From: a virus
Lineage: Duplodnaviria > Heunggongvirae > Uroviricota > Caudoviricetes
Virus record (IMG/VR): IMGVR_UViG_2609460332_000008
Direction: 5' to 3' (one strand)
Length of the DNA: 64,000 nt
Below are positions 9,830-27,171 of the stretch, one piece after another. Numbering within the stretch: position 1 is the stretch's first letter; every line of letters begins with the position of its first letter. A program made the translations under genes and the position numbers. The notes below the pieces were generated by a model. The model did no database searches and had not been told where the DNA came from. It was given only the letters and a program-made list of their open reading frames with translations.

Positions 9830-11694
9830 TACCCTTGCTCCACGCTGGTGACGCCAGCCTGCGCACTGAGTCTGACGCCGGGTTGATCCACTCTGACACT
9901 TTTCACGCGGGCGTCACCTTCCACCACCACACGGATTTCCCCCTGCAATTGCTGCGGAAGGAAAGGATAATTCTGTGTGCCCTGCATACCTGCCCACGGT
10001 CGCGGGTCAGCAATGTTCTTGTCACCCAGCGAACTGAACCAGTCCGTTACCTTACGCCAGACGGACTCGAGCGCTTTCTGGTTGTCCTGACTCTGTTGCG
10101 CGAACTCGCGCTCCCGCGGGCTGGCGCTGGCATCACCGGCAACGGATTTAGTGAGACTGTCAACCTCACCCGGCAGGGCGTATTGTGTGGTCAGAAAATC
10201 GTAAAACTCCAGAGCACCGGCAATGATGCCAGCGCCTTTACCTGCCTTTCCTCCACGGTTACCCGGCCCCCGAGGATTGCGGGGATTGCGCGATGAATCT
10301 GGTGTATCCGGCAGACCGCCGGTATTACCATTCATCCCGCCACTGCCCATATTAACCACATAAACCGGCATCACACCGGAGCCGAAAACATCTGTAATGC
10401 CACCGGGTATTCCTTTGCCTTTCCCTTTGGGATTCATGATGTCGTGGAGGGTTTTACCTAACTGGTACGTTTTTCGGATGGCGATAATGCCGCCCACAGC
10501 AATCGCCATATATTTACCGACCTGCAACCAGTTCTGGACGGTGTTCTGGTCCACGCTGTTGATGGCATCAGCCAGGTCCTGAACGGGTTTTGCCAGTTGA
10601 TGGTGGGAGAATTTTTTCCAGCTGGTTTCCAGTGCCTGCATGGCAGACGTAAAATCCTGTGCAGCATACGCGGCATCTTTCATGATGCCTTTACCATCAC
10701 CGACGACTTTCATATAACGTTGCAGGTTTTCTGCACCTTTGCCTGACGTTACGCTGCTTAAAAGCATGACTGAATCCTGGTTAAAACCGGCTTCAATCAG
10801 CCTTTTATTTTGTTCTTCTGCGCCCCGGTTCCCTGATTTTCTGGCAATCTCCTGAAGCAATATCGGAAGCGATCGCATCCGGCCATCTTTCCCGTAAACA
10901 TCAATGCCATTTGTCCGCAATGTTTTTACAACCTTCGGAAGCTGTAAATCACGGATCAGATTTTCAACAGCGGTTGCGGCGGTATCACGGTTCCCTGTTG
11001 CATCAACGGCAGATTCAAGTGCAACCCCTACGTCCTTGACACCCTGCACACCACGTCCGCCCGCGGCGGAATACAGCGACATCGCACGGGTTGCTTTTTC
11101 TGCGATGTCTTTCAGTTCATAGGCACCTTCTTTTCCCAGCAGGTTCAGGGTATCCATTGCCTTTAAGGCATCGTTTTCATCCTTAATCCCGAACTTCGTA
11201 AACTGAGAAAACAGCGAGCCGATGGCTTCCCCTGAACTTCCGGAAGCGGCGATGGATGCCGCCATCATCTCCTTGTTTTTGAAACCAAAATCAATCTCAC
11301 CCGTCACGGTGCCGACTTTTTCCACAGCGCTTATCAGTTCACTGTCATCAACCTTAAATTTGATGGCGGCGTCCTGAATACCATTCAGCATCTGTGCCAT
11401 TTCGTCGCGCGTCTTTTCTGCAGCAATACCAATGCGGGTCATCCGGCGATCCACCTGCGCAAACTCACGCATCATGGCGCTACCGGCAAACCCGGCAATC
11501 ATTGCCGTGTAGCGGTTACCCAGCACATCAAGGCCACGTGTGGCAGATTCCGTTGTGGCTTTGACCAGATTCATTGCCTTCTGATGATTACGCGCGAACT
11601 GCGACATATTTGCGCCGTACTGCCGGGCTTTGGCGGTCAGGTTCCCGGCAAGGTTGATCATGATTTCCGTGCTGAGACGGTTACCTGTTGCCAT
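9829..11694 (-). CDS. Tail tape measure protein
   Basis: 621-aa ORF with Gly-rich C-terminal region, downstream of tube and chaperone genes. Confidence 0.7.
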   Translation of the reverse strand: MATGNRLSTEIMINLAGNLTAKARQYGANMSQFARNHQKAMNLVKATTESATRGLDVLGNRYTAMIAGFAGSAMMREFAQVDRRMTRIGIAAEKTRDEMAQMLNGIQDAAIKFKVDDSELISAVEKVGTVTGEIDFGFKNKEMMAASIAASGSSGEAIGSLFSQFTKFGIKDENDALKAMDTLNLLGKEGAYELKDIAEKATRAMSLYSAAGGRGVQGVKDVGVALESAVDATGNRDTAATAVENLIRDLQLPKVVKTLRTNGIDVYGKDGRMRSLPILLQEIARKSGNRGAEEQNKRLIEAGFNQDSVMLLSSVTSGKGAENLQRYMKVVGDGKGIMKDAAYAAQDFTSAMQALETSWKKFSHHQLAKPVQDLADAINSVDQNTVQNWLQVGKYMAIAVGGIIAIRKTYQLGKTLHDIMNPKGKGKGIPGGITDVFGSGVMPVYVVNMGSGGMNGNTGGLPDTPDSSRNPRNPRGPGNRGGKAGKGAGIIAGALEFYDFLTTQYALPGEVDSLTKSVAGDASASPREREFAQQSQDNQKALESVWRKVTDWFSSLGDKNIADPRPWAGMQGTQNYPFLPQQLQGEIRVVVEGDARVKSVRVDQPGVRLSAQAGVTSVEQG

Positions 11695-11890
11695 GCTGTT
11701 TCTCCAGTTGCTTTATCAGGCGGAACAGCTGCCGCAGGGGCAGCTGTTCCAGGTACTGAATGCTGAATCGCGAAGACAGGTTAACCAGCAGGTTCATCAG
11801 TGCCGCCGCCAGCGGCATCAGTTCGCCCCCGCGTTGCCACCTCCTCAAGCATTTCATCCAGCGCGGCGGCTTTCGTGCTGATAAGCTCAA
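11681..11890 (-). CDS. Candidate frameshift extension of the tail assembly chaperone (alternate-frame ORF overlapping chaperone 3' end and the tape measure start)
   Basis: ORF in another register overlaps 11781..11890 and runs to the tape measure start; conserved chaperone frameshift position in tailed phages; no slippery site identified. Confidence 0.3.
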   Translation of the reverse strand: MSLSARKPPRWMKCLRRWQRGGELMPLAAALMNLLVNLSSRFSIQYLEQLPLRQLFRLIKQLEKQHGNR

Positions 11891-12176
11891 GGTCTGCCGG
11901 ATGGAGCATTCGCAGCTGTTTCATGTCCAGCGGGCCGGGAATGCTGCCGATGGCCGCAACCTGACGGCGCATCATCTCCAGCCCCATCAGCACTTCAGAG
12001 CAGTAGGCCACCGCCTTTCCATTCCCGCCCATGACGACGCGTTCTGCGGCCAGTTGTGCATCAATCACATCACTGGCGGTCAGTTCGCGCAGCTTCACGG
12101 TTTTATGCAGGGTTTCATCTGCCGTGCCTTTGCCGGTCAGAAGCCCGTGTTTCAGTTCAAATTCCATTTCAGCCAT
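11781..12176 (-). CDS. Tail assembly chaperone
   Basis: 131-aa acidic ORF between the tail tube and tape measure genes. Confidence 0.55.
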   Translation of the reverse strand: MAEMEFELKHGLLTGKGTADETLHKTVKLRELTASDVIDAQLAAERVVMGGNGKAVAYCSEVLMGLEMMRRQVAAIGSIPGPLDMKQLRMLHPADLELISTKAAALDEMLEEVATRGRTDAAGGGTDEPAG

Positions 12177-12177
12177 G

Positions 12178-12534
12178 TCACACCTTCACGCATTTTTCAC
12201 CGATAAAGTTCGCACTGATGGTGCCGGAATCCTCGTCCAGCTCCGCCGGGTTATCCGTGGCGGACCCCGTCATCATGTAGTTCAGGCCGTTGTCGCCGTA
12301 GAACATCACCGTGACGTCTTCCCAGCTGCTGATTTCAATCACGTCCATATCCGCTGCCGCCGCAATGGTCACCTTGATGGACGGCGAGGCCATCTTGCTG
12401 GAGATACCCCAGACCTTGCCGCCGCCCATATGCTGGGTGCGACTGAAGCCGCCCGGATTCAGCGTGGATTTCCCCTCGGTTTTAATTTCGCGGCCATTCA
12501 CGCGAATGGTCGCCATGCCAAGAATTTTTGCCAT
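12178..12534 (-). CDS. Tail tube protein (Mu M-like)
   Basis: 118-aa ORF directly downstream of the sheath gene. Confidence 0.65.
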   Translation of the reverse strand: MAKILGMATIRVNGREIKTEGKSTLNPGGFSRTQHMGGGKVWGISSKMASPSIKVTIAAAADMDVIEISSWEDVTVMFYGDNGLNYMMTGSATDNPAELDEDSGTISANFIGEKCVKV

Positions 12535-12543
12535 GCGGTCCCC

Positions 12544-14019
12544 TTAAAGTTTGAACTGAATCAGGCCTGCCAGCACACGCAGCTGGTTCACCAGATTCGG
12601 GTGGCAGATAAAGTTCAGGCGGTTTTTATCGCTGCTGTCGCGTGTCACCTGAAGCGTGTCCCTGTAATCGCTGAAGTTCTCCACAAGGCCTGCCGGGAGA
12701 AGTTCGGTCTGGCAGATATCCAGCAGCTCTGCGGTGCACAGCTTCGGCGTCATCACCGGCTGACCGGCATCCAGTGAGTCCAGCACGTCATCATCCGCCA
12801 GCTTGTGGCGCGGATAACGGTTCGTGAAACGGTTTTTGATGATGTAGCGGATACGGCCCAGCGTGGCGGGTGACTGCACATCCAGGTACGACACATCCGC
12901 ATCACCGTACTGATTAACCCGGTACATGGTGATTTCACGCTCGATGCAGACGTTATCCCCGGCGTCCACCATGTGCGTGGCAATGCCGTCATGCAGCAGC
13001 AGATTACGCTCCGGCATATCCCAGCGAACATTACGCGCAGGCGGCAGAATGCCGGTCAGAACCAGCGTCTGAAGCGGACGCGCCGGGTCAATGGCAAGGT
13101 GATACGCTGCCGTTGCGCCGTATGACGCGGCCCACATCCACGCCGGGTGCGGTGACAGGTTGGTGCCGATACAGCTAATCAGCCAGTCATTGCGGGTTTC
13201 ACCAAACGTGCCGGTTTCCCCGTGTGTGCCACGAAACGCCGTCCACAACTGCGCCTCCATCATTTTGAGCGGCCCCCAGCGATTCAGCAGTTCATCACGC
13301 AGGGTGTTCAGGCTTTTCGTGTCGGTAAACGGGGCGATGATATCGGTAAACCACTCCGGGCCGATGGCCGCAACGGCATCCGCCATTTCCGGTGTCCCGG
13401 TGCCGCCGGTAAACGCAGTAGCGGTCACCTTCACACCTGCCGGGAAGGCTTCACCGGTGTAGTAGTTCAGGCGAACGTCGGCACCGTTGCCGGTGACGCC
13501 GTGCCAGTTCACGGTCAGCTCCACGGTATCCGTGGCATCATCCTTCACCGCAGCGGCCACCTGCGTGGCAGGCTTTTTCGTCACCGCATCAGCAATGGCT
13601 TTTGCAATGTTTTCCTTCGTAGCCCCGGCGCTCACGCTCACCTGAACGGACACACCGTTAATCAGCAGTGCCACCGTTCCGGCTTCAGTCGCTGTACCCA
13701 GCACGGTCAGCGTGGCTTTTGCGGCAGCGCCTTCAGGCGCGGCAACCGGCATTGCCCAGGTTTCCGTGTACGTGTTGGCACGACGCAGCATTTTGAGCAT
13801 TTCAGCCAGCATCGACCCTTTGCCATAAAGCTGGTCTGCCTGGCTGTCACTGGTGATGCGGGTCAGTGACAGGGCGTCTGCGCTGCCGGACGATACCGCA
13901 TGGCCCATGACCAGAATTTTTCGGCTTTGCGCGGATGCACCCTCCAGCGCCTGTGAATTGTCGATATCGATCCAGACAAGCGGGACGCGGATATCATCAG
14001 GAATTGAACCCAGCGACAT
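12544..14019 (-). CDS. Contractile tail sheath protein (Mu L-like)
   Basis: 491-aa ORF, sheath-sized, followed by the tube gene. Confidence 0.7.
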   Translation of the reverse strand: MSLGSIPDDIRVPLVWIDIDNSQALEGASAQSRKILVMGHAVSSGSADALSLTRITSDSQADQLYGKGSMLAEMLKMLRRANTYTETWAMPVAAPEGAAAKATLTVLGTATEAGTVALLINGVSVQVSVSAGATKENIAKAIADAVTKKPATQVAAAVKDDATDTVELTVNWHGVTGNGADVRLNYYTGEAFPAGVKVTATAFTGGTGTPEMADAVAAIGPEWFTDIIAPFTDTKSLNTLRDELLNRWGPLKMMEAQLWTAFRGTHGETGTFGETRNDWLISCIGTNLSPHPAWMWAASYGATAAYHLAIDPARPLQTLVLTGILPPARNVRWDMPERNLLLHDGIATHMVDAGDNVCIEREITMYRVNQYGDADVSYLDVQSPATLGRIRYIIKNRFTNRYPRHKLADDDVLDSLDAGQPVMTPKLCTAELLDICQTELLPAGLVENFSDYRDTLQVTRDSSDKNRLNFICHPNLVNQLRVLAGLIQFKL

Positions 14020-14219
14020 TATTTTTTCCCTCTGGTTTTGTTGCTATTTTTCGGAAGCGCGGTTATTTCCACATCTCCTTCGGCTTCACGGCGCAGCCAG
14101 TAAGCGCAGACGTCGAGACGTTCCCCTTCCGGGGATAAATGCGCGCCATCCGGTTTACGGACACGGACGTTTTCCCGCGCTGGCTTAATCAGTTTCTGTT
14201 CCATCGTCACCCCGTACAT
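14019..14219 (-). CDS. Small hypothetical virion-module protein (66 aa)
   Basis: ORF start overlaps upstream gene end; conserved position upstream of the sheath gene. Confidence 0.4.
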   Translation of the reverse strand: MYGVTMEQKLIKPARENVRVRKPDGAHLSPEGERLDVCAYWLRREAEGDVEITALPKNSNKTRGKK

Positions 14220-14796
14220 GGATCACGTCGTTAATCTCAGTATGTTCACCGCTACGCAGCGTTGCCCCGAGGCGCAGGAAGTCCGGGAGCGCGGCGAGAT
14301 CAATCTCTTCATCCAGCTGAAATTCCTGCTCCCACGTCACCGCCCACATGGTGACGCCCAGCCCGTCGAGGCTGGCGGAGTAAATGTTGTCTGCCCGCAC
14401 ATCAGCAGCCATGCGTTCAGCCCCCATGCCCCCGGTGGCATCCGACGACAACAGGCGTTTGATCACCTTCCCGGCCAGCACTTCACAGCGCACGTCGCGG
14501 GAGTACCCCCACGAATCCGTCGCCATGATGTAAGCCACCCAGGTAACCAGACCGGACAGCCCGCCGCGCGGGTTGATATCCCGGACACGCAGGGCAGCTA
14601 CCCGGATACAGCCGGTGCGACCGGACAGATAGCGTTTGACTTCCTCCGGGCTGTTGAACTGGCCGATGTGACGCTCCACCACGTCAGCCCGGTCAGGGGT
14701 TTTCCCCTGAAGTGCTGTTTTCAGCCAGGCCACAATGCGCTCTGCGGCCGCAACGGTGCTCCCCGGTGTGCGCAGTTCAGGGCGTTGTTCTGTCAT
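14185..14796 (-). CDS. Hypothetical head-tail / neck module protein (203 aa)
   Basis: ORF in the structural operon between head and tail genes. Confidence 0.45.
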   Translation of the reverse strand: MTEQRPELRTPGSTVAAAERIVAWLKTALQGKTPDRADVVERHIGQFNSPEEVKRYLSGRTGCIRVAALRVRDINPRGGLSGLVTWVAYIMATDSWGYSRDVRCEVLAGKVIKRLLSSDATGGMGAERMAADVRADNIYSASLDGLGVTMWAVTWEQEFQLDEEIDLAALPDFLRLGATLRSGEHTEINDVIHVRGDDGTETD

Positions 14797-15338
14797 GGCA
14801 GAACCTCCTTCCAGAAATGACTGATAACCTGTTGCAGCTCCTGCTGGTTGGCAGAAGACAGCCCCAGAAATTCACGTTGCGGAATGTTCATCATGCGGTT
14901 ATGTGCGCCGACGGTCTGCCAGACCGGATATTTCAGCGCCCGCCCGAAACACTGCGAGATAAGCCGTTTGTGGGCGCTGACCGGCACACTGCCGGAAAAG
15001 CCGTCATTCATGATGCGGGCATAATCCAGCGGTGAACCGATACGCACCACGCGGTTTTCCACGATGTACTGGATACTCTCCAGCAGATGGCCTTCACCAC
15101 GCAGCAGACTCTGGTTGCCGTGGCGGGTCTTTTTGTACCCGTCAGACCAGTCCGGCCAGCGTTCGCCACCCGGACTGGTTTTCTCATCAATGATGCGGCG
15201 GCGGGTCTGTGATTCCACCACCGCACCGATGCTCTCCAGCAGCTCTGCCTGCAATGAACCATCTGCCAGCTTTTCAACGGCACGGCGGATATCCTCCAGC
15301 CGCTGGTCACCGCTGACCTGTACAGAAATCCCCATCAC
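14793..15338 (-). CDS. Putative virion morphogenesis / tail completion protein (181 aa)
   Basis: ORF in the structural operon; overlapping start and stop with neighbours. Confidence 0.45.
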   Translation of the reverse strand: MMGISVQVSGDQRLEDIRRAVEKLADGSLQAELLESIGAVVESQTRRRIIDEKTSPGGERWPDWSDGYKKTRHGNQSLLRGEGHLLESIQYIVENRVVRIGSPLDYARIMNDGFSGSVPVSAHKRLISQCFGRALKYPVWQTVGAHNRMMNIPQREFLGLSSANQQELQQVISHFWKEVLP

Positions 15339-15772
15339 AGCACCCCTTTCAGGTTGTTACGGGTGAACAGCCGGGCATTGGCACCCACCACAATGATCTT
15401 CCCGTGGTCGGTTTCTGCCGGGGTGGCATACGTCGGCAGACCCAGGTCACGGGTGCCGTTCGCCATCTCACGCAGGGTTTTAATGGCGTCGTCGTAGCGT
15501 TTCTGGATCAGCTCCGTGATTTGATTGTCACGCTCTGACAACCAGTAAAACGCCAGCGATACCGCCACGCGTTGCAGCGGGCGCGGGATTTCCGTCACCC
15601 CCAGCGGCAGCTGGTAGCGGCGGGACAGAAACGAATCAATTTCCGCTTCGGCATCACTGATGGCCTGACGGATTTTGTCTTCATCCAGTTCGTTGGTTTC
15701 CCGGTTAATCGCCATGTTCCAGACAAGATTGCCGTCCGCGCGTAACAGGTCTTCCTGCGTGATATACCCCAT
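15335..15772 (-). CDS. Hypothetical head-tail connector-like protein (145 aa, Mu gp36-like)
   Basis: ORF downstream of the major head gene in Mu order. Confidence 0.45.
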   Translation of the reverse strand: MGYITQEDLLRADGNLVWNMAINRETNELDEDKIRQAISDAEAEIDSFLSRRYQLPLGVTEIPRPLQRVAVSLAFYWLSERDNQITELIQKRYDDAIKTLREMANGTRDLGLPTYATPAETDHGKIIVVGANARLFTRNNLKGVL

Positions 15773-16083
15773 CAGCCTTTCTCCGCTTCCCGGACAATCA
15801 GATTCGGCTCTGCCATCAGGCGGGTGGCAACCGCAGCGCTCACCGCCACATCCTCACCGGCATGTGACCAGAAACGACCACAGCGCCAGAACCCGTTTTC
15901 AGACACGGCCCGGACGTTCAGCCGGACAGGGGCGTCCCCCTGTACAACAGCCGGGTCTTCAGCCGGACGTGGTTCATTCGCCTGACCGTCAGCCACAATA
16001 ACGTCTGCCAGCGGTGCCGGGTTTTCCTGTGCTGCGCTGTTCTTTGCGGCTTTCGCGCCTTTGGTTCCTGCTTTTTCACTCAT
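15772..16083 (-). CDS. Hypothetical head protein (103 aa)
   Basis: ORF immediately downstream of the major capsid gene. Confidence 0.4.
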   Translation of the reverse strand: MSEKAGTKGAKAAKNSAAQENPAPLADVIVADGQANEPRPAEDPAVVQGDAPVRLNVRAVSENGFWRCGRFWSHAGEDVAVSAAVATRLMAEPNLIVREAEKG

Positions 16084-16154
16084 GACTCTGCCTTTTGAAA
16101 GGCAGTTAAAAGGGCATTCACAACGCCTTTTAACTGCAATTTACGGATGACGGG

Positions 16155-17057
16155 TTATGCCGGGGTGGTGATGAACGGACTGACCACGATGTCCACATCC
16201 TTGTACCAGATGTTGGAATCGCCGCCGTTTACCAGCATGGCGTCAATGATGCGCTTCGCAGCCGCGCGATTTTTCGGTCCCACCACAAGGGTGGTCGGGC
16301 GGATGCCCAGCGGTTCACCGTTGGTGGCCTTCATACCCAGCAGCAGATTACTGGCGCTCTCGTAGTTCTCCGCTGTCAGTGCCGCACGGGAACCGACGGC
16401 GGTTTGCCAGAAGCCGAATCCTGCATTACAGCGACCGTCCACCCCGTACAGGAACTCGTTATTCTTGAAGGTGTGCTCGCTGTTCAGATCGTCCAGGGCT
16501 TCAAACTTAAAGGCGCGTCGCGTCTGCCAGATGATGGGTTTCAGTACCTGAGAATCATCAATCAGAAACCACGGTTCCCCCTGGTCTGATGCCGGGGTGC
16601 CGACAACGTTGCTGTATGTGCCGTCGCCCAGCGGGTGGTCTTCATCAAAGAAGTTCTGACCGTCAAAACACAGGGTGTTAAACCCGGCACACAGCAGGGG
16701 GTAACACAGCTTGTCCGGGAACTCTGACGTCTGGCGGCCATAGCGTTCAGCGATAATGCTGTACTGACCAATCTGATCGTCTTCAATGTGTTCGCGTTTA
16801 ACGCGGATCGAACTTTCCCAGGTTTTGTTCGCAAGGGTGTAACCATAACCGTCCAGCGTTGCCATCTGACGGGCGCTGACCCATTCTTTAATCTCCGGTA
16901 AATCTTTCATCCAGCCGTAGGTATTGGAAGCGGACGAACTCGGGATTTCAGAGGCGATGCGCTGCCACTGTGGGGTAACACCACTCAGACCACGGGTATA
17001 AGCGGCGCTCAGGCAGGTGGTCAGCGCGTGAAGGACTTCGGAAGTGACTGCTCCCAT
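16155..17057 (-). CDS. Major capsid protein (Mu T-like)
   Basis: 300-aa ORF following the protease/scaffold gene; conserved Mu-like head order. Confidence 0.7.
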   Translation of the reverse strand: MGAVTSEVLHALTTCLSAAYTRGLSGVTPQWQRIASEIPSSSASNTYGWMKDLPEIKEWVSARQMATLDGYGYTLANKTWESSIRVKREHIEDDQIGQYSIIAERYGRQTSEFPDKLCYPLLCAGFNTLCFDGQNFFDEDHPLGDGTYSNVVGTPASDQGEPWFLIDDSQVLKPIIWQTRRAFKFEALDDLNSEHTFKNNEFLYGVDGRCNAGFGFWQTAVGSRAALTAENYESASNLLLGMKATNGEPLGIRPTTLVVGPKNRAAAKRIIDAMLVNGGDSNIWYKDVDIVVSPFITTPA

Positions 17058-18019
17058 CAGTTATTCTCCTGTTTCGGTTTAGCGGCGAGGAACTCTTCCC
17101 CGGTAATACCCATGCTGCGGCACATCGCCAGTTCGGCGTCGGTCAGTGTCTGCGCGGGTTTATCCTTGCCCTGGCTGGGCTTGTCGTTGTTCACCAGCGG
17201 CTGTGCACCTCTGGTGTATTCCGCAAACTGTTTGCGGCCTTCTTCCGTGCGGCAGGTGGCAAGGAACATGTCACGGTTTGCCGGGGCCACTTTTCCGGCT
17301 TCGATGGCCGCATCCACAAGCGCTTCTGCTTCCTTAGCTTCCAGTTGCTGAAGGCGTTGTTCTGCGGTTTCTGCACGGTTCAGTGCCAGATTGTGGGTTT
17401 CCACCGGCACAAACTTCGTCAGGTCAGGTGTCTGTGCGCGGTTCAGCGCCACCTGTTCGCTCTCCTGAAGTTGTTTAATGGCGGCCACGGTATCGTCCAC
17501 CGTGGCGGATTCAGCCAGCCCAAGCAGGCCGGTGATTTGCACAGGTACTGTCATCGGGTTTTTCTCCGTATTCAGTGCAGGAAAATCCAGGTTAGGTTTG
17601 TTGGTCAGCCCGACGCTGGACAGGCGCGTCACCACACCCTCCGCGTCATGGAAAAACGCCGGGCTGTAATAGCGATAGCGGCGCTCGCTCAGCATCCACC
17701 TGGCGGATTCACTCCAGACAACACGCCCTTCAATGATGCCGTTGTCCGTCACCCGCAGTTCTTCCACCCAGCCATACGCCGGGGCTTCATCACCGCGTTG
17801 CCCTTTAATTTCGGTGGCGTGTTCAATGTCCACCGGAATTTTGATGTCGGACGAGCGGGTGACCACCTCATGCGGATTGCGGTTAATCCACGTCCGGCCA
17901 TCGCGCCCGGTGAACTCACCCGCAGGGACGAGTTCAAGCCATTCCGGCAGTTGAGCGGGTGTCAGCTCAGGGATGGGTTCTGGCAGGGAAAAACACAGCG
18001 CCAGCAGTTCCGGTTGCAT
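17057..18019 (-). CDS. Prohead protease / scaffold protein (Mu I-like)
   Basis: 320-aa ORF with Ala/Glu-rich coiled-coil C-terminal half (scaffold-like), upstream of the major capsid gene. Confidence 0.65.
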   Translation of the reverse strand: MQPELLALCFSLPEPIPELTPAQLPEWLELVPAGEFTGRDGRTWINRNPHEVVTRSSDIKIPVDIEHATEIKGQRGDEAPAYGWVEELRVTDNGIIEGRVVWSESARWMLSERRYRYYSPAFFHDAEGVVTRLSSVGLTNKPNLDFPALNTEKNPMTVPVQITGLLGLAESATVDDTVAAIKQLQESEQVALNRAQTPDLTKFVPVETHNLALNRAETAEQRLQQLEAKEAEALVDAAIEAGKVAPANRDMFLATCRTEEGRKQFAEYTRGAQPLVNNDKPSQGKDKPAQTLTDAELAMCRSMGITGEEFLAAKPKQENN

Positions 18020-18068
18020 GTCAGTCTCCGTCGTTTGGGGTTACCGACGGTCAGTATGCGGAAGGCAG

Positions 18069-18090
18069 AAAAAAAGCCGGATTTACCGGC
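18069..18090 (-). terminator. Rho-independent terminator between F-like and I-like genes
   Basis: Minus-strand hairpin GCCGG-TAAAT-CCGGC followed by a U7 run; 26-nt sequence identical to 25804..25829. Confidence 0.6.
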
Positions 18091-18232
18091 TTCACTGAAA
18101 ACGGGAAAATACCCCCTTCAAAACCCCTTCAAAAACGCCACAGCATCTTCAAAAACGTCAGAATGCACATTCACGCCATCAGAATAAAAAACGCGTTTCT
18201 GATGCGTTTCAGGGGGATTTGCGGCGGGAGGG

Positions 18233-18997
18233 TTACTCTCTGTCAAAACGGGCCTGTTTTGTCGCCAGCTGGCGCGCCAGCGCCTGCTCACGGTTTATGC
18301 CGGGATTGTAGTTCCAGCCCGGATCAATCCCTTCCGGCACCTCTTCCTCTTCGCCCGTGCGTTTGTTCACCCAGCGGACAGTTCTGATTTCCGGCGCTTC
18401 GGTGTGAATGGTGCCCTGTGCCGCCAGTTGCGCATATTCACCACGGCTGACCTGACGGATGGTGCATTTGCAGCCCCAGCCGTTAGGGGCGAAATGTGTC
18501 AGCCAGAACGGATGATCAACCGGCAGACACAGACGTGCCCATTTCACATGCTCCGCCCGGTGCTCGCGGGATGGTCCCAGCTCGTAAATCAGATACGGCA
18601 TGGCCCGCTTTGTCCGCTGGATGCGTTCCCACTGGCCCGCCGCGCGGGCGGTGCGCATGTTGGTATCAAAAATCGTGCGGAGGCGGCGGTCGCTGCCCAG
18701 TTGCACGGTGCGGGTTTCGCCCGTCAGCGGATCATCCATCTCCTGAACACCCCACCATCCGCGTTTTATCAGCAGCGGTTGCAGCGCCTCCCGGAACTCG
18801 CTGAACGTCTGTCCGCTTTGCAGGGCGTCTTCCACAAGGGCTTTCACATCCGACAACAAATCCAGTTGCAGCATTTTTGCCACGGTGAAGCTGTTCCGGT
18901 GTTCTTCCCGCCACACATCCCGGTAATCAAAACCGGGGCGCAGCTTCTTCGCCTTCAGCCACGCCAGCGCCTCTTTCGGGATGAGGGTTTCACGCAT
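18233..18997 (-). CDS. Head morphogenesis protein (Mu F-like)
   Basis: ORF directly downstream of the portal gene; start placed at ATG 18995-18997 after the portal stop. Confidence 0.6.
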   Translation of the reverse strand: MRETLIPKEALAWLKAKKLRPGFDYRDVWREEHRNSFTVAKMLQLDLLSDVKALVEDALQSGQTFSEFREALQPLLIKRGWWGVQEMDDPLTGETRTVQLGSDRRLRTIFDTNMRTARAAGQWERIQRTKRAMPYLIYELGPSREHRAEHVKWARLCLPVDHPFWLTHFAPNGWGCKCTIRQVSRGEYAQLAAQGTIHTEAPEIRTVRWVNKRTGEEEEVPEGIDPGWNYNPGINREQALARQLATKQARFDRE

Positions 18998-20561
18998 GGC
19001 CGGTGTCCCCCAGCGCACGCGCCTTAAAGCACACCTCCGCCAGTTGCAGGGCAAAGTCGTCCGCGTTCAGCGTTTCCTGAAGCTCAGGCAGACGTTTCAG
19101 AAAGTCATCAAAACTGTCGCATTCCTGCGCCAGTGTCAGCACCGGGTTCGTGAACACCTCGCCGGTTTTCTGCCAGTCACGCAGGGCATCATCCACCATC
19201 AGCGCCAGTTCGTCGGAGTGTTCACGGTTCAGGGCGACGCGCTCGCGGTTCATCGCCACATCACCTGACATTCCGGCAGACACCGGATGCAGAACATCAG
19301 CCCCGTCGTCCGGTTCAGCCAGGCCGAACCGGTCCCGCAGCTCCGATTCCTGAACCCGCATCCCCCGGTCAATCAGCGGCACCAGAGCATCTGTCAGCGC
19401 CTTCAGATCTTCCGCTTCACTGATACGCAGAACAACACGGGGGTAGTGCGCCTGTGGCCCGTAGTTGGCCTCGATGTAGGGCCGCACCAGATATTCATTC
19501 AGCGTGTTAGCCAGCTGCCGCGCGTCCCAGCGCACAATGTCCATGCGCACCTGATTGTGCACGTCCGCCTGTGAACGCGAACTGCCGTTATCCGTGGTCA
19601 TGGTCTGCCCCAGCACAGCCTTACTGATTTGCGCATCACACCATTCCGCCATTTCACGGAACAGTGCGCCGCCGTTATTCCGGCTGGCGGTTTCCTTCAT
19701 TTCCAGTTGCATGGACTGCGGAATGGCACACCCGGCATCCGAGGCAATGGAAGCAATCGCATCAATCAGCACGCGGATTTGCTCCTCCGTGGCGTTGGGG
19801 CCGTATTTCCCCACTGTAACCGGAATGCCGAACTTTTCCGCAAATGCCCACCAGTCGCGCACGGTAAAGGATTTCAGCATGTACATCACCGCCACCAGAC
19901 GGGCCAGACCGTTACGCAGCGGCAGACCGGATTTCAGGCGCGGCTGGTGAACAATGAATTTTCCCGGTGTCAGCGGTACGCCATCCACCGGTTCATCGTC
20001 AGTCAGCAGGCGGAACTGGCGCAGCGTGGTTTTTTCGGCTTTCAGAAAACGGGGATCAACCCACTCATAATCACGGGGCATCCAGTGGTTTTTGTGGGTA
20101 TTCCACAGGATTTCACAGACCGCCACGCCTTTTCCCAGCCCGTCGAGCAAATCAAACATCAGTTCGGGGATTTGCGGGGCTTCCATCAGTGCACGGATGG
20201 CGTCCGCCAGTTGCACGTCAGCATCGTCATCACTGGCGGCCACCACCACCGGTTCGATACCCGCCACCGTCAGCTTGCGGGTGCGCAGCACCGAGGCGTA
20301 ATGCAAATCACGTTCTTCCATCTCTTCGGCAAGGATAAAAAAATCACGCGTGATGCCGTCGGCGGCATTGCGCAGAATGCCTGCCAGCCTGCCGGGATTC
20401 AGCCCGGAAGCAATGCTGATGCCCGGCGAGGCCGAACGTACGCCAGCCTGACGCGGGCGGGCCTGTGCTTCATTGAGCGCCTCTTTTTTCAGGGTGTCGC
20501 CCTCGCCGGTTGTCGGGTTCAGCAAATGACGAACATCCCCGGTCTGTTGTTTCAGGTTCAC
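18990..20561 (-). CDS. Portal protein (Mu H / gp29-like)
   Basis: 523-aa ORF downstream of the terminase large subunit gene. Confidence 0.7.
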   Translation of the reverse strand: MNLKQQTGDVRHLLNPTTGEGDTLKKEALNEAQARPRQAGVRSASPGISIASGLNPGRLAGILRNAADGITRDFFILAEEMEERDLHYASVLRTRKLTVAGIEPVVVAASDDDADVQLADAIRALMEAPQIPELMFDLLDGLGKGVAVCEILWNTHKNHWMPRDYEWVDPRFLKAEKTTLRQFRLLTDDEPVDGVPLTPGKFIVHQPRLKSGLPLRNGLARLVAVMYMLKSFTVRDWWAFAEKFGIPVTVGKYGPNATEEQIRVLIDAIASIASDAGCAIPQSMQLEMKETASRNNGGALFREMAEWCDAQISKAVLGQTMTTDNGSSRSQADVHNQVRMDIVRWDARQLANTLNEYLVRPYIEANYGPQAHYPRVVLRISEAEDLKALTDALVPLIDRGMRVQESELRDRFGLAEPDDGADVLHPVSAGMSGDVAMNRERVALNREHSDELALMVDDALRDWQKTGEVFTNPVLTLAQECDSFDDFLKRLPELQETLNADDFALQLAEVCFKARALGDTGHA

Positions 20562-22093
20562 AGTAAACCTCCCTCATTTTTCAGGCCGCGTGTCAGCTTC
20601 ATCTGGCGGCGCGTGTTGCCTTCTTCCGGTTTCGCCGGGCGGTTCAGGCGGTGCAGCTCGTAACGGTGGCAGTCATCCTTGCTGGCAAGGAAGCCCAGGA
20701 AAATGGCCACAGCGGCGTCGCCGTGACGCTTGCGGCCATCACTACCTTTAGTACGGGCATCGTCAATGCCGGGAACACCACGCAGTAACTGAATGGCCCC
20801 GAGGTCATTGATCACGTCTTCATGCTTCGGAAGGATCAGCTCATCATCTTCAAACGCTGCACGGAAACGGGGCATGTTTTCGCGGTAGAACGCCACGGAC
20901 AGCATCACCTGTTCCACCTCATCGCCGTACCGCTCCGCCGCCTGTTCTGCCAGATACTGACCATTCCCCCGTGCATCCATTTTGATACCGTCACGACGGG
21001 GCAGACGATCGCAAAGCCAGAACAGCACCTGCTCCTGCTGTTTAAACGGCACATTGCCAAGCTCAACCAGGAACGGCACCTCGCGGGTGGTGTCATCGTT
21101 CACCGTCACCGGGGCCAGTACGGTCAGGTCACCCGAACGCGCAAAGTCTTCCCCCAGACAGTGGCGCAGGTTCTTCGGGAGTTTTTCCAGCTCGGGACGC
21201 ACCACTGTTTCCAGCCATTCCCGGATATCTGCCCGGCGCTGACTTTCCGTCAGTGCGTTAAATTCCGGTGTGCCGGTAAAGCGCAACACTTTTCCGGTGC
21301 CACGGGCCGCACGTTCACGCAGTGAGCGGGGGATATACGTGCCGCCGCCGTTTTTCGGGACGCAGTAATATTCCTCCAGGGCGTCTTCGCGGGTGGCGGT
21401 ATTTCGCAGCAGGCCTTCTTTCCATTCCGCTTCGGCTTCCGGTGACCACACCATGCCGCGCACCTGACAGATACGCCGGTACAGCCCGTCATTGCAGGCG
21501 TCATCCAGCGTGATGGTGTGAATGCGGTAATCCCGTTTTCCTGCGCGGCTTTCCAGAATCAGCTGGTTAAACAGGTTGTCCACGCCGTCATGGGTGGAAA
21601 TAAGGCGAATTTTTCCGCCCCATGTTTTCAGCGGCAGCACAGCCTTCAGCAGCTCGTCCAGTTTTTCATGGAACGCGGCCTCGTCGATGGTGACATTCCC
21701 CTGCATCCCGCGAATGTTGCTCGGGTTGCTGGACAGTGCCTTGACCTTAAAACCGCTGGCGAAGTACACGACGAACGTCAGAATGTCCTTGTCTTCGTCG
21801 GTGATCACTTCCTCGCAGATTTCTTCCGCTGCCGCATTAAACGCTTTCGCCCACATCGCCACGGCGTCGATAAATTCGCGGGCCATCTCCTTATTCGAAC
21901 CGATATAAAAGTGATCGCGCCCGCCGAATTCCTTCTTCAGTGATGCAGTCAGTGCCGCATCTGCCGCCTCCGCCCAGGTTAAACCGGTACGGCGGGATTT
22001 CTCGGCGATTTTCAGGTCGGCATCATCCGCCACCCAGCGTTTCTGATACGGCAGCAGAACATCGGATTCACTGAACGTGTTCATCTGTGTCAT
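20558..22093 (-). CDS. Terminase large subunit (Mu gp28-like)
   Basis: 511-aa ORF upstream of the portal gene. Confidence 0.7.
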   Translation of the reverse strand: MTQMNTFSESDVLLPYQKRWVADDADLKIAEKSRRTGLTWAEAADAALTASLKKEFGGRDHFYIGSNKEMAREFIDAVAMWAKAFNAAAEEICEEVITDEDKDILTFVVYFASGFKVKALSSNPSNIRGMQGNVTIDEAAFHEKLDELLKAVLPLKTWGGKIRLISTHDGVDNLFNQLILESRAGKRDYRIHTITLDDACNDGLYRRICQVRGMVWSPEAEAEWKEGLLRNTATREDALEEYYCVPKNGGGTYIPRSLRERAARGTGKVLRFTGTPEFNALTESQRRADIREWLETVVRPELEKLPKNLRHCLGEDFARSGDLTVLAPVTVNDDTTREVPFLVELGNVPFKQQEQVLFWLCDRLPRRDGIKMDARGNGQYLAEQAAERYGDEVEQVMLSVAFYRENMPRFRAAFEDDELILPKHEDVINDLGAIQLLRGVPGIDDARTKGSDGRKRHGDAAVAIFLGFLASKDDCHRYELHRLNRPAKPEEGNTRRQMKLTRGLKNEGGLL

Positions 22094-22692
22094 GCGCTAA
22101 TCCCCAGAAGTTCACGTTTGATGGTGTCAGCCGCACCGCCTGACAGACCGCCCGTTCTGACCAGTTCTTCGGTTTTCTCTGCCATCTCCTGCGCAAACGC
22201 ATCGCGGATCGCTTTCTCGCGTTTATGGCTGGTCATGGCTGCCGCTTCCAGACGTTGGGCAACCAGCGCCAGTTGGCCCAGCGCCTTCGGTGCAACAGGT
22301 TTGTCATCTTCTGCCATCGACATGGACGTTTCAAAGGCCAGCGTTTTTACAAACTCCATCAGCAGCTTGCCGACGTCTGACGTCGGCGCGGAACCCAGCT
22401 TTGCCGCCCAGACTTCGGCCATTTCGCGGGAGGCGCGGATTTTGGCCCCGACTTTTTCCATGCGGATGGCATAGCGGTTTAAGCCCGTCCGGCTTAACTG
22501 CATCTCTTCCGGCAGGTTATGTTCGTCAATCAGGGCGTTGATGGCTTCGCGGATTTCTTCCTGTGTGTGCCGCTTTTCCCGCAGCATCTGATGCAACTGC
22601 TCCCGGATGCTGTCCGGGAGTAAATCCACTTTGGAAAGACGGCCACGGGTGGGGCGTTGTTCATTTTCCATGTGTGCCCTCCTGTTGCTCAC
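22090..22692 (-). CDS. Terminase small subunit-like DNA-binding protein (Mu gp27-like)
   Basis: 200-aa basic/acidic ORF overlapping the terminase large subunit start. Confidence 0.55.
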   Translation of the reverse strand: MSNRRAHMENEQRPTRGRLSKVDLLPDSIREQLHQMLREKRHTQEEIREAINALIDEHNLPEEMQLSRTGLNRYAIRMEKVGAKIRASREMAEVWAAKLGSAPTSDVGKLLMEFVKTLAFETSMSMAEDDKPVAPKALGQLALVAQRLEAAAMTSHKREKAIRDAFAQEMAEKTEELVRTGGLSGGAADTIKRELLGISA

Positions 22693-22808
22693 TACGCTGT
22701 GAACTTTCGTATGCAGATTTCAGCGCGCCACTCTGGATTTCACGCCATGTCAGGTTGTGCGCCAGACGGCGGAGTTCATCACGGGACGCTTTACTTATCG
22801 GATTCTTT

Positions 22809-23108
22809 TTACGGTTCACGACGGCCCCCGTCTTCAGTTCCCGGTGTTTTCAGACCGGCGTATATTTCTTCGCGAACGGAGCGGATATCCTTACCCAGCA
22901 GCTTCCACAGCCGCGCACATGCCGGTGATGAACGCAGGGCACGTTTCATGGGGGTATCCGGTGCATCCGGGTTCCAGGGCTTTCCGGTCTGTTGTTCGTA
23001 TGCACGGACAATGGCGTTTTGCTCAATATCTGCCAGCACAAGGCAGTACGCCAGTTGCCGCACGACGGCCCGTTCTCCGCGACTTAACGGCTTCAGTTTT
23101 CGGGCCAT
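22809..23108 (-). CDS. Hypothetical protein (99 aa)
   Basis: ORF in the late region between lysis genes and terminase; no recognisable motif. Confidence 0.4.
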   Translation of the reverse strand: MARKLKPLSRGERAVVRQLAYCLVLADIEQNAIVRAYEQQTGKPWNPDAPDTPMKRALRSSPACARLWKLLGKDIRSVREEIYAGLKTPGTEDGGRREP

Positions 23109-23110
23109 GC

Positions 23111-23404
23111 TCAGTCCCTCGCACGGGGTTTTTTAACGCCCGGAACGCTGGACAGGCCGTTTGCCACATCCTCGCCGCTGCCGGTGATTTCAGCCACGTA
23201 ACAGCCGCCCACATCAGACAGACGAACCAGCCCCTGCTCGCGCAGCCATGCAAGCTGGGTGCGCACCACATCACGGGATACCTTATGACCGTAGGCCTGA
23301 AGGCAGGTCTGCAACACGGATTCATTCGCGCTGTCGCCACAGTCCAGCAGGGAACGCAGCAACACAAGACGACGGTCTTCAGTGAGGATCTCTTTCATCG
23401 CCAT
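23111..23404 (-). CDS. Hypothetical protein (97 aa)
   Basis: ORF tightly packed with neighbours. Confidence 0.4.
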   Translation of the reverse strand: MAMKEILTEDRRLVLLRSLLDCGDSANESVLQTCLQAYGHKVSRDVVRTQLAWLREQGLVRLSDVGGCYVAEITGSGEDVANGLSSVPGVKKPRARD

Positions 23405-23709
23405 TATTTTTTTTCCTTTAACTCGTTCTCTAATAACAAATCGCTGATGCGGGATACCTGGCGGATGGATGGCCCCAGCTCTTTGATTTCTCCCCGCAGG
23501 TTGCTGATATCCAGTTGCAGGCGGTGGAACTCATCACGGTCGGGTAAATGGTGTACCTGGCTTTCCATCACCGACATGCGGGAACGGAGTGAATCAAACT
23601 CTTCGCGTTTGACGTAGGTTTTCGCCAGAATCAGCTGAAGCAGGTTTATTCCTGTCATCAGCAATGCCCACAGAATGGGCCAGTTGGCTCTGATCATTTC
23701 CCAGGACAC
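23404..23709 (-). CDS. Membrane-anchored coiled-coil protein (101 aa), possible lysis accessory protein
   Basis: N-terminal hydrophobic segment WPILWALLMTGINLLQLILA followed by a charged coiled-coil region. Confidence 0.4.
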   Translation of the reverse strand: MSWEMIRANWPILWALLMTGINLLQLILAKTYVKREEFDSLRSRMSVMESQVHHLPDRDEFHRLQLDISNLRGEIKELGPSIRQVSRISDLLLENELKEKK

Positions 23710-23921
23710 GTTTTCCTCCTGCGTTCCCGCATCTGCTGACAGTCAATACAGGTCACCACATCCGGCAGCGCCGCAAGGCGCTGTGCCGGAATAACGTTCC
23801 CGCAGTCATTGCAGAAGCCCCGGCTGTGGGGCGCTTCTTTTGCCCGCGTCTGCCAGGCTTTAACGACGCTCTGACGCTCGTTCAGAACCACTTCACTGAT
23901 GCGGTCGATTTCGTCGGTCAT
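23694..23921 (-). CDS. TraR/DksA-family C4 zinc-finger protein (75 aa)
   Basis: CNDCGNVIP...CIDCQ four-cysteine motif in a small basic protein. Confidence 0.6.
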   Translation of the reverse strand: MTDEIDRISEVVLNERQSVVKAWQTRAKEAPHSRGFCNDCGNVIPAQRLAALPDVVTCIDCQQMRERRRKTCPGK

Positions 23922-24526
23922 TTCGGCCCCGCAGACATTTTGTGACGGCTCGATTTGCTGTAACGGGCAAAACCGTCAAGGGTTCTTACGCCGAGATAGC
24001 CCAGCGCCGGGGTAAGCAACATCAGCGTGATATCCCAGTCCGGTGACGGCATATGCAGCGAGATACCTCTGGCACAGGCAATGGCTCCGGCAATCTGGCC
24101 GCAGGAGAGCAACAGCACATAGGCCAGACTGCTGTAACAGGAAAGGCGGGCCAGCAGCGGGCGCGTCTGGCGCACATAGCTGTCCGTGGCGTTGTCACCA
24201 TTGCGGATGGTTTCCTGCTGTTCGTGGTGTGCGGCCTGCTGGTCAGCCAGCACCAGCTTCTGCCGTTCCACCTCCAGCTGTTGCAGCTGAATTTTCAGGG
24301 TTTCCAGTTGCACCAGTTGCTCCGGTGACAGCATCACCAGTTTTTGTTCCAGAATGCGTTGCTGTTCAGCAACGGGAAGGCTTTCCCGGACGCTTTCCAC
24401 CATACCGGCCACCGAGTCAGCGGCGGCAGATGTACTGCCACCAAACCAGCGCCCGACGGAACGAATCAGCCCCGGCCCGGCTTTCAGCAGAACAGAGGCG
24501 ATGCCTGAAAGGGTTAACGGATCCAC
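23918..24526 (-). CDS. Lysis-associated membrane protein with central coiled coil and C-terminal transmembrane segments (203 aa, GTG start)
   Basis: GTG at 24524-24526 preceded by GGAGG; coiled-coil LEQKLVMLSPEQLVQLETLKIQLQQLEVERQKL; two C-terminal hydrophobic segments. Confidence 0.45.
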   Translation of the reverse strand: MDPLTLSGIASVLLKAGPGLIRSVGRWFGGSTSAAADSVAGMVESVRESLPVAEQQRILEQKLVMLSPEQLVQLETLKIQLQQLEVERQKLVLADQQAAHHEQQETIRNGDNATDSYVRQTRPLLARLSCYSSLAYVLLLSCGQIAGAIACARGISLHMPSPDWDITLMLLTPALGYLGVRTLDGFARYSKSSRHKMSAGPK

Positions 24527-24939
24527 GGGAAACCTCCATACAGATAACGCTGAAGACAGAGCAGACCGCCGCAACTGCCACCACACAGCCAGAACACCGG
24601 ATGCACCGGTGACATCATCATCAGCGTGCTGAAGACGCAGCAGAAATATCCCAGCGCCCAGACCACCCATGACCACACGATGATGTGGCGACCAAAAGCC
24701 CGGTAACGGACCTCAGGCAGCAGGCGAAATGGCACATTCCCGAGGCTTGCGCTGTATGAAAACAACACCACCCCGGCAAAGGACAACAACATCAACACGA
24801 ACGATCGCCAGCCACATAACATGCTGATGATGAACATGCAGAGTGTCAGTCCGGCCAGCGGCCATGGGGTTCTCATCAGTCGGGAACAAAGCAGCCAGTC
24901 ACACAGTTTTAAAATTTTGTTCATTACCTTTTTCCACAT
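24514..24939 (-). CDS. Multi-pass membrane protein (start uncertain; may begin at a later Met near 24876)
   Basis: Strongly hydrophobic segments (LTLCMFIISMLCGW, VLMLLSFAGVVLFSY, VVWALGYFCCVFSTLMMM); N-terminal part of the long ORF is probably not coding. Confidence 0.45.
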   Translation of the reverse strand: MWKKVMNKILKLCDWLLCSRLMRTPWPLAGLTLCMFIISMLCGWRSFVLMLLSFAGVVLFSYSASLGNVPFRLLPEVRYRAFGRHIIVWSWVVWALGYFCCVFSTLMMMSPVHPVFWLCGGSCGGLLCLQRYLYGGFPWIR

Positions 24940-25150
24940 TGAATTTTTCCCTGTACTTCTGGCACTGCCAGAAAATGTCCCGTGTATCCACGGAGTTCCA
25001 GCCACGCATGTAGTAGCTGGCGTGTGTGCCGTCATGGCCGGTATAGTCCAGCGGTTTCGGGGGCGGACCTCCGGCCATGCGGTGCAGAACCTCCTGACGC
25101 AGGCGGTCACGCCGCCCGGCTTTCAGTGAGGCATCCCAGCCTTTGCCCAT
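24899..25150 (-). CDS. Hypothetical protein (83 aa) immediately downstream of the lysozyme-like gene
   Basis: ATG adjacent to the upstream stop; Trp/Tyr-containing soluble-type sequence. Confidence 0.4.
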   Translation of the reverse strand: MGKGWDASLKAGRRDRLRQEVLHRMAGGPPPKPLDYTGHDGTHASYYMRGWNSVDTRDIFWQCQKYREKFNVEKGNEQNFKTV

Positions 25151-25151
25151 A

Positions 25152-25748
25152 TCACCCCCGCGTGGCGGACATGATGCCCAGAGGGGTATCGATGATTTCC
25201 AGACAGGCGTCGGTCAGTTTTTCCATGCGGTTAAACCAGCCGTTCAGGTATTTACCCTGGGCGGGTTTTGACTTGATGATGTCGGCATAAAAGCGGGAAC
25301 GACGGACAATGCAGCGGGCCAGCAACCAGTCCGGGGTGAACAGACTCACGGCCTTACGGGTACGTGGGCCGATGATGCCGTCAGCATCCACATCAGCGGC
25401 TTCCTGCAAAATTTTGATGGCTTTTTTAACGCCATGCTGAACCGCTGCATCGAACACAAACATCGCCACGCCATCAGGCCACTGGTCACATCCGGCAGGC
25501 AGCCAGTAATCGCGCCAGTAAATCTGCGCGACCTGTTCGCGGGTTAAATCCTTAATGCGGGTATCCGGTTTGCCGTCGCCGTTGACATCGGTTTTGCCGT
25601 CAATCACACCGTCGCGGCGGTCAGAAATGCCGTATTTGGTTTCGCCGCCACGGTCAGTGGGGTCATTGACATAGACGCCTTCGATATCGGGACGCAGAAT
25701 GAAATTCAGCGCATGCTCAAAGGCCGGGGAGAATTTTTGATTTTCCAT
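25152..25748 (-). CDS. Peptidoglycan hydrolase, GH108-like lysozyme with peptidoglycan-binding C-terminus (putative endolysin)
   Basis: Motif EGVYVNDPTDRGGETKYGIS typical of the GH108 muramidase family; first gene after the early-operon terminator. Confidence 0.6.
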   Translation of the reverse strand: MENQKFSPAFEHALNFILRPDIEGVYVNDPTDRGGETKYGISDRRDGVIDGKTDVNGDGKPDTRIKDLTREQVAQIYWRDYWLPAGCDQWPDGVAMFVFDAAVQHGVKKAIKILQEAADVDADGIIGPRTRKAVSLFTPDWLLARCIVRRSRFYADIIKSKPAQGKYLNGWFNRMEKLTDACLEIIDTPLGIMSATRG

Positions 25749-25803
25749 AAAAGCACCTGTGAAGCAGATTTAAACGTGGTCTGCTTCATGGTGCCGGAGG
25801 CAT

Positions 25804-25825
25804 AAAAAAAGCCGGATTTACCGGC
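25804..25825 (-). terminator. Rho-independent terminator at the end of the early operon
   Basis: Minus-strand hairpin GCCGG-TAAAT-CCGGC followed by U7, directly after the Mor/C-like gene stop. Confidence 0.65.
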
Positions 25826-25833
25826 TTCATTGA

Positions 25834-26831: not shown

Positions 26832-26904
26832 TATCGTACCTCCAGAAAAGGGGGCGGTGCGGCAACACCGCCAGAATCCACTCACTAAACAGAGGAAGCT
26901 TTTT

Positions 26905-27171
26905 ATGAAAAACAGTGAACAACCTTATGATGTTGCAGGGTATACCATTGCCTCAAGGTTGCTGATACTCCTTGTCAGAAAGGGGCTGATTACCGCAGAG
27001 GAAGGAAAAACAATCCTCAAATCCGCTGCAGTCGTAGCTGCAGAGGCTCCGGTATTGAGAACAACGAATGATTCCGCCCTGCAAATATCGCAGCTAATCA
27101 CTGAAACCATCAGTTTGTTAGACCAAGATCCTGATGAATATCAAAAGCCTCAGCCATCTGAGCATCCGTAA
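26905..27171 (+). CDS. Candidate opposite-strand small protein (88 aa) in a gap of the Mu early operon
   Basis: ATG at 26905 preceded by AGGAAG at 8-nt spacing; protein-like composition; competes with a 61-aa minus-strand ORF (26925..27110). Confidence 0.3.
   Translation: MKNSEQPYDVAGYTIASRLLILLVRKGLITAEEGKTILKSAAVVAAEAPVLRTTNDSALQISQLITETISLLDQDPDEYQKPQPSEHP

Follow-up and report, generated by a model that had tools for sequence, protein, structure and literature searches.

The closest described system to the locus considered here is the gp41/FS-gp41 pair of phage Mu, reportedly described by Xu, Hendrix & Duda in 2004 as a -2 programmed ribosomal frameshift. The note attached to the joined coding sequence (CDS) Mu_56 in the GenBank record of Mu reads 'verified -2 translational frameshift in PMID 15469818; tail assembly chaperone frameshift product', and the conceptual -2 join in Mu is exactly the 188-amino-acid (aa) 'Probable tail assembly protein FS-gp41' (UniProt P0DJY4; GenBank UIW09302.1). 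Mu is placed among the users of -2 frameshifting in the review by Atkins et al. (PMC5009743), and tandem -2 slippage on GG GGG CGA has been described for it (PMC3458567). The bare 10-mer Mu site gave 14% shifting in a purified in-vitro system, with a reporter that, per its authors, cannot tell -2 from +1 (bioRxiv 10.1101/2025.10.02.679949). A full-text literature search for the octamer string returned only unrelated papers. The window, which is the whole 64,000-nucleotide (nt) stretch analysed here (IMG/VR record IMGVR_UViG_2609460332_000008), carries on its minus strand a gp41-like tail assembly chaperone gene with the same octamer. We assign a probability of about 0.88 to the reading that this is a Mu-type programmed -2 ribosomal frameshift in the contractile-tail chaperone gene of a Mu-like transposable Escherichia coli prophage. 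The initial annotation had tentatively joined the chaperone to an overlapping open reading frame (ORF) by a programmed +1 or -2 frameshift; the conserved octamer, phase and extension, together with the homology to Mu, strengthen that proposal considerably.

We infer that the shift occurs in this prophage, in the -2 direction, and that its efficiency and products have the following roles. Most ribosomes would read the gp41-like ORF to its stop and produce the 131-aa chaperone, and a minority would shift with GGG (11828..11826) in the P site and CGA (11825..11823) in the A site. A two-base backward slip on GG GGG CGA would then be followed by 48 codons in the -2 frame, and the resulting fusion would have 165 aa and end just within the tape measure gene. 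The lambda gpG/gpGT and Mu gp41/FS-gp41 pairs suggest, by analogy, that the tape measure protein is bound by both forms through their common N-domain and that the rarer extension recruits the tail tube protein. The efficiency of the shift may thereby set the proportion of chaperone to fusion on which tail assembly depends.

The predicted shift site and its conservation

The 131-aa chaperone matches the Pfam family Gp41_Mu (PF23746) over the entire profile (positions 1-107/107; E=4.6e-37, 126.8 bits, cut-off 27), in agreement with its first description as Mu-like. It also matches Phage_TAC_7 (PF10109, E=1.6e-7) and belongs to PHROG 508, 'tail assembly chaperone'. The identical protein is found on 196 contigs under the name 'phage tail assembly protein'. 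The 69-aa ORF shares 110 nt (11781..11890) with the chaperone ORF. The offset between the two starts, 286 nt (12176-11890), equals 1 mod 3, which places the second ORF in the +1/-2 register, and its stop at 11681 lies 14 nt inside the tape measure ORF. The initial annotation had read these features correctly: both ORFs on the minus strand, the overlap, the register and the reach to the tape measure start. The TTG at 11890 is a mechanical ORF boundary only, and the recoded part begins at 11827. Within 9 kb, 101 ORFs reach 30 aa or more, many lying inside real genes, and an overlapping alternative-frame ORF is by itself no more than chance in this GC-rich DNA. Because such ORFs are common here, the case must rest on the motif and on comparative data.

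Codons 117 and 118 of frame 0, the reading frame of the chaperone, are the GGG (11828..11826) and CGA (11825..11823) of the site, in the context GAG GAG GTG GCA ACG CGG GGG CGA ACT GAT. The corresponding frame of Mu gp41 is ACA CAA GAA CGG GGG CGA GTG GCT, with the octamer at 1850-1857 of the Mu locus (L001). In the 64-kb window the octamer GGGGGCGA occurs only once, both strands counted, where 2.85 copies are expected, and the chance of finding it in the 110-nt overlap and in the Mu phase, derived from the window count, is about 8e-4. A synonymously broken form of the octamer is GGTGGTCGT. The initial annotation had reported no slippery heptamer, which is strictly true, for no X XXY YYZ heptamer stands in frame 0 within the overlap, but it overlooked the Mu-type octamer at 11830..11823. 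The locus does not lack a shift-prone site, as that annotation had allowed it might. A -1 shift of the lambda G/GT type was considered and rejected: the -1 frame, which is the tape measure frame, holds stops, the downstream ORF is in the +1/-2 register, and the heptamer is absent.

For comparison, 90 related loci were gathered through N-terminal chaperone peptides or homology, and never through the motif. They comprise nine annotated phages, 36 loci from bacterial contigs, 43 viral contigs and two E. coli chromosomes. The 36 bacterial loci come from contigs of one genome per species and were found with the N-domain patterns D[VY]IDAQL[AE]A and [AC]Y[CT]S[ED]V[LM][MY]G, taken from a four-sequence alignment; the viral contigs were seeded with Mu, Pasteurella and Alteromonadaceae proteins. 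The sequence [C/A]GGGGGCGA is kept in the same phase in 88 of the 90 loci. These 88 reduce to 76 distinct sequences in five clades, whose chaperones fall to about 35-48% identity with that of the window. The octamer is retained in Escherichia, Klebsiella, Serratia, Brenneria, Vibrio, Shewanella, Aeromonas, Rheinheimera, Pasteurellaceae and others. In one exception (L023), an upstream indel lies in a fragmented assembly and the octamer is still present; in the other (L044), four G instead of five give one continuous fused ORF. Klebsiella sp. WOUb02, the source of L023, holds at least six copies of the related prophage tail module (L013, L015, L017, L023, L027 and L029); several of its 'plasmid' records carry them, and so do the two ends of the chromosome record. 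This suggests either that the assembly broke at a Mu-like element present in several copies or that the DNA was caught in replicative transposition.

In the most restrictive relatives, the -2 frame has a stop only 6 nt upstream of the G run, and the end of frame 0 comes 14 nt past the first G. These stops confine the shift to about 20 nt centred on the octamer. In an anchored alignment, all eight motif positions are at least 90% conserved, compared with 30-70% at most flanking positions. The Arg codon preceding GGG has a third base that frame 0 leaves free and the fusion does not translate; this base is G in 75/75 sequences. The C at motif position 6 is never A, though both frames would stay synonymous (CGA to AGA, GGC to GGA). 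The third-base entropy is 0 at the motif vs 0.99-1.93 bits at 14 conserved fourfold-degenerate control columns. The alignment points to selection on the nucleotides of the motif, beyond the encoded Arg-Gly-Arg.

In a few assemblies with four G (G4), the chaperone and the extension form one in-frame ORF that is read straight through, and the two frames do join at the G run. G4 cases were seen in a Marinomonas rhodophyticola prophage (L044 1832..1835), in a 164-aa E. coli-type protein and in two 187-aa Mu-type proteins (raw-read assemblies; P0040, P0002, P0008). They are either homopolymer sequencing errors or natural fusion-only variants. The full fusion is covered by only 2/65 homologue clusters, each of them a single Logan contig; one of these is a G4 variant and the other carries an indel upstream. 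Such natural in-frame fusions were rejected as a proof of function, being as likely homopolymer errors as real variants.

The -2-frame extension and the predicted products

The extension is 40-52 codons long in the relatives and 48 in the window, and in 74 of the 76 distinct sequences it ends between -23 and +14 nt relative to the start of the tape measure gene. Variable sites were counted in the part of the extension that frame 0 does not overlap, at positions 1/2/3 of the -2-frame codons. The counts are 17/9/27 in the window's clade (12 equal-length sequences), 14/6/26 in the Pasteurellaceae clade, 16/16/26 in the Mu clade, 37/27/42 in the Vibrio/Shewanella clade and 26/20/31 in the B23 clade. 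Variability thus decreases from the third to the first to the second position in four of the five clades, and the Mu clade ties the first and the second. In each of the five the third position varies the most, a pattern that would be expected of translated sequence. The initial annotation had named lack of conservation of the overlapping ORF as the result that would count against a frameshift; its length, end point and -2-frame coding pattern are all kept in the relatives.

The extension belongs to PHROG 38797 (E=2.8e-34), a family without known function. A Pfam search of the extension gave nothing significant, and a match to Telomere_reg-2 (E=0.07) is noise. When the profile of the window and Vibrio extensions was compared by hhalign with that of the Mu, Pasteurella and B23 extensions, the two aligned over 44 columns with 85% probability (E=6e-6), centred on a common LPLR-x-L motif. 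This weakly suggests that the extension is remotely homologous to the Mu extension.

Residue 118 of the predicted fusion would be Gly if the P-site tRNA slips alone and Arg if the slip is tandem, and the length is the same in both cases. The junction peptide predicted for a -2 shift is GGELMPLAAALMNLLVNLSSR with a P-site slip only and ELMPLAAALMNLLVNLSSR, preceded by ...TRGR, with a tandem slip; a +1 shift would give GELMPLAAALMNLLVNLSSR.

Alternative readings and candidate stimulators

Several points weigh against a -2 frameshift at this locus. The evidence for this prophage is at the sequence level, and the -2 direction is assigned by homology with Mu, as the sequence by itself does not separate -2 from +1. 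The 76 comparators are related sequences, and counts drawn from them overstate independence. The similarity of the extension to that of Mu is weak, the two fall in different PHROGs, and the extension has no Pfam family. In the window an ATG (11818..11816) stands 12 nt after the first G, which places the G run at Shine-Dalgarno (SD) distance. Downstream structure is also unsupported: folding of 11850..11760 gave a z-score of -0.02, and alignment folding of the window's clade gave no compensatory pairs.

A +1 slip at the same site fares best among the alternatives and is nonetheless improbable. Slow reading of CGA in the A site would let the P-site tRNA-Gly move by one base, from GGG onto GGC. 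The fusion would then have 164 aa (TRGELM), one Gly fewer than the -2 product. In favour of this reading, CGA is decoded poorly, as in hungry-codon +1 shifts, a +1 move leads into the same register, the two directions look alike in reporter assays, and the G4 variants encode exactly the 164-aa product. Against these points, both annotation and review give -2 for the homologous Mu site, and the anticodon CCC re-paired with GGC would carry a third-position C·C mismatch. In addition, -2 re-pairing of tRNA-Gly requires the G that stands two bases upstream of the GGG codon, and a +1 slip does not; this base is coding-neutral, yet it is invariant in all 75 sequences. The +1 slip is ranked low because of the Mu precedent and this invariant upstream G.

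Independent initiation, without any recoding, is somewhat less probable still. A separate 45-aa protein (MPLAAAL…) would start at the internal ATG with the G run as its ribosome binding site. This piece is called 'hypothetical protein' on >1000 contigs of E. coli, Shigella and Salmonella, and is annotated by RefSeq in E. coli RM9088 as WP_001127483.1 (window 11681..11818, minus strand; L011 1683..1820). Of the 76 distinct relatives, 34 have an ATG or GTG at 12 nt after the first G. The start is not conserved, however: most relatives have none there, the Mu clade is without it, and three relatives have no ATG, GTG or TTG anywhere in the extension. The verified product of Mu is the fusion, and independent initiation leaves unexplained both the invariance of the octamer, synonymous positions included, and its fixed phase in frame 0.

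RNA polymerase slippage on the five G (+2 G or -1 G), which would yield the fusion by standard translation, is very improbable. The homopolymer is at the right place, a GG insertion would encode the same protein as a -2 P-site slip, and G4 assemblies exist. The run is short, however, and to our knowledge, bacterial transcriptional slippage needs longer runs of A or T. Slippage also leaves the invariant CGA unexplained, with the synonymous AGA never used, and the bare 10-mer works in a purified translation system, where T7 transcription is not formally excluded as the source. Although alternative-frame ORFs of similar size are common in the window, it is extremely improbable that the overlapping ORF merely happens to be open in GC-rich DNA and yields no product, as its length, end point, motif and codon-position pattern are conserved over five clades and most of the extension overlaps neither frame-0 nor tape measure coding.

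For the programmed -2 frameshift, the candidate stimulator is the SD-like element AGGAGGTG upstream of the site. The element has two copies in the window and is not significant alone. Pairing with the anti-SD sequence at or below -6 kcal/mol was found in 42-58% of the 76 distinct relatives for 8-nt segments starting 17-14 nt before the G run; the fraction was at most 0.11 at all other offsets sampled (-120..+57), the G run excepted. The position of the element is kept in four of the five clades and is absent in the Mu clade. At codon -5, synonymous codons ending in G are used exclusively. Glu is encoded there by GAG in 36 cases and by GAA in none (pooled background GAG:GAA 246:210 in the three contributing clades, and 40:97 in the Pasteurellaceae clade), and Lys in the Pasteurellaceae clade by AAG in seven cases and by AAA in none (background AAG:AAA 9:44); these counts, like those for the SD-like element, are raw and ignore the relatedness of the sequences.

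We consider it possible, though with limited confidence, that AGGAGGTG acts as a functional rRNA-pairing 5' stimulator of the -2 shift. The element is a candidate rather than an established part of the signal, and its placement is comparable to that of the SD-like element of dnaX. If it does act in this way, most Mu-like phages would tune the stoichiometry of chaperone and fusion by a 5' element, with the textbook Mu site as the exception that lacks stimulation; the element would also be a 5' stimulator of a natural -2 frameshift, of which no description was found in the literature. The conserved element is a cheap, testable lead on how the efficiency of -2 shifting is set.

The initial annotation had proposed looking for both a conserved slippery motif and a downstream structure, and of these only the motif emerged, in 88 of 90 loci. 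When the 60-nt segments after the site were folded in the 76 relatives, the mean z-score was about 0 in the window's clade. Only the Vibrio/Shewanella/Aeromonas clade (L003, L004, L028-L047) folds more stably than shuffled sequences, with a mean z-score of -1.7 and a minimum of -3.9 for 11-70 nt after the octamer. Alignment folding of the Vibrio/Shewanella clade gave a weak, poorly supported long-range helix with few compensatory pairs, and this clade may have a 3' element of its own. A local 7-bp hairpin (11817..11801) is unsupported and was rejected as a stimulator, since conserved coding (MPLAAA) accounts for it.

Genomic setting, annotation and known systems

The features of the locus are collected in Table 1. 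The order on the minus strand is tube, chaperone, overlapping ORF and tape measure. In an E. coli KFu019 locus that is 99.9% identical, RefSeq names the tail tube ORF 'phage tail tube protein'; the tape measure ORF is 'phage tail tape measure protein' by RefSeq.

Table 1. Features of the chaperone locus in the window
Feature	Coordinates	Strand	Remarks
Shift site GG GGG CGA (GGGGGCGA)	11823..11830	-	Frame 0 cgG GGG CGA; codons 116-118, Arg-Gly-Arg
Frame-0 tail assembly chaperone ORF	11781..12176	-	131 aa, ATG start, gp41-like; stop TAA 11783..11781
-2-frame extension	11681..11827	-	48 codons (GELMPLAAALMNLLVNLSSRFSIQYLEQLPLRQLFRLIKQLEKQHGNR) and stop TAA 11683..11681
Predicted frameshift fusion CDS	complement(join(11681..11827, 11826..12176))	-	165 aa; conceptual join
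SD-like element AGGAGGTG	11838..11845	-	Inside chaperone ORF, 9 nt 5' of P-site GGG; perfect 8-nt complement to 16S 3' end
Overlapping ORF	11681..11890	-	69 aa, TTG start
Tape measure gene	9829..11694	-	621 aa, ATG at 11694; Pfam PhageMin_Tail PF10145, E=2.2e-16
Tail tube gene	12178..12534	-	Adjoins chaperone on its 5' side; Pfam Tail_tube PF10618, E=4e-38

These genes belong to a complete Mu-like transposable prophage at 640..34209, which is 99.4% identical to a prophage of E. coli KFu019 annotated with transposase, AAA ATPase, Gam, Mor, Com and Mom. It has Mu-type termini (TGAAGCGGCGCACGAAAAACGCGAAA… at 640 and …GTGAATCAATACA at 34209), and a perfect 5-bp direct repeat, CCAGC, stands on both sides (635..639 and 34210..34214). 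This repeat is the hallmark target-site duplication of Mu transposition. The insertion site differs from that in KFu019, because the flanks do not match.

The treatment of the -2 ORF by RefSeq is inconsistent. In the KFu019 locus no frameshift is given and the -2 ORF is unannotated, and in E. coli RM9088 the 45-aa protein described above is annotated in its place. The 165-aa fusion was not found in a collection of 15 billion proteins. Annotation is the main consequence of the present analysis, as the chaperone is carried on hundreds of contigs of a widespread lineage of Mu-like prophages in E. coli, Shigella and Salmonella, and a fusion that is probably required for tail assembly is yet in no database. 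The rare -2 signal GG GGG CGA is not peculiar to Mu: gammaproteobacterial Mu-like myophages keep it without variation although the identity of their chaperones has fallen to ~35-48%, and an invariant octamer makes a simple rule for annotation pipelines. The locus is an unannotated new instance of a mechanism described in 2004, and the understanding of frameshifting and of tail assembly is unchanged by it.

Among the known systems, +1 shifting of the prfB type fits the register and the slow CGA; the SD-like element of the window, however, is 9 nt away from its P-site codon, vs ~3 nt in the prfB type. In E. coli dnaX, an internal SD-like element likewise stands several to ~10 nt 5' of the shift site, and rRNA-mRNA pairing at this element favours backward slippage. 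The shift of dnaX is -1 on A AAA AAG with an additional 3' hairpin, whereas that of the window is predicted to be -2, its 3' structure is unsupported and the part played by its SD-like element is conjectural. SD-like 5' stimulators are also mentioned in the 2025 study of the Mu site (bioRxiv 10.1101/2025.10.02.679949).

The gpG/gpGT gene of lambda, as here, precedes the tape measure gene, and its two products share their N-terminus. Their ratio is critical for tail assembly and neither is present in the virion (PMC5009743). Lambda differs in its -1 shift at G GGA AAG (X XXY YYZ) and its non-contractile tail, and no sequence similarity is detectable. P2 gpE/gpE+E' is nearer in that the tail is contractile and the chaperone of the window matches Phage_TAC_7 ('E, or 41 or 14'); its frameshift also adds a short C-terminal extension before the tape measure gene. 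The P2 shift is in the -1 direction (note on the Mu_41 annotation; PMC2628397) and uses a different slippery sequence.

Compared with Mu gp41/FS-gp41, the locus shows certain discrepancies. The chaperones are only 48% identical over 72% of their length (tblastn E=1e-15), the extensions belong to PHROG 38797 in the window vs 12783 in Mu, and the frame-0 tail after the site is 14 codons in the window vs seven in Mu. The perfect 8-nt SD-like element 9 nt upstream in the window has no counterpart in the Mu clade. The fusion product is verified for Mu and is predicted from sequence in this prophage. The two systems agree in the following respects. The gene lies between the tube gene (M in Mu) and the tape measure gene, and the upstream ORF belongs to the same Pfam family, Gp41_Mu. 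The octamer GG GGG CGA is identical and in the same phase, encoding Arg-Gly-Arg, and leads into the same +1/-2 register. The extensions, 48 codons in the window vs 51 in Mu, both end at the tape measure start, and their profiles align.

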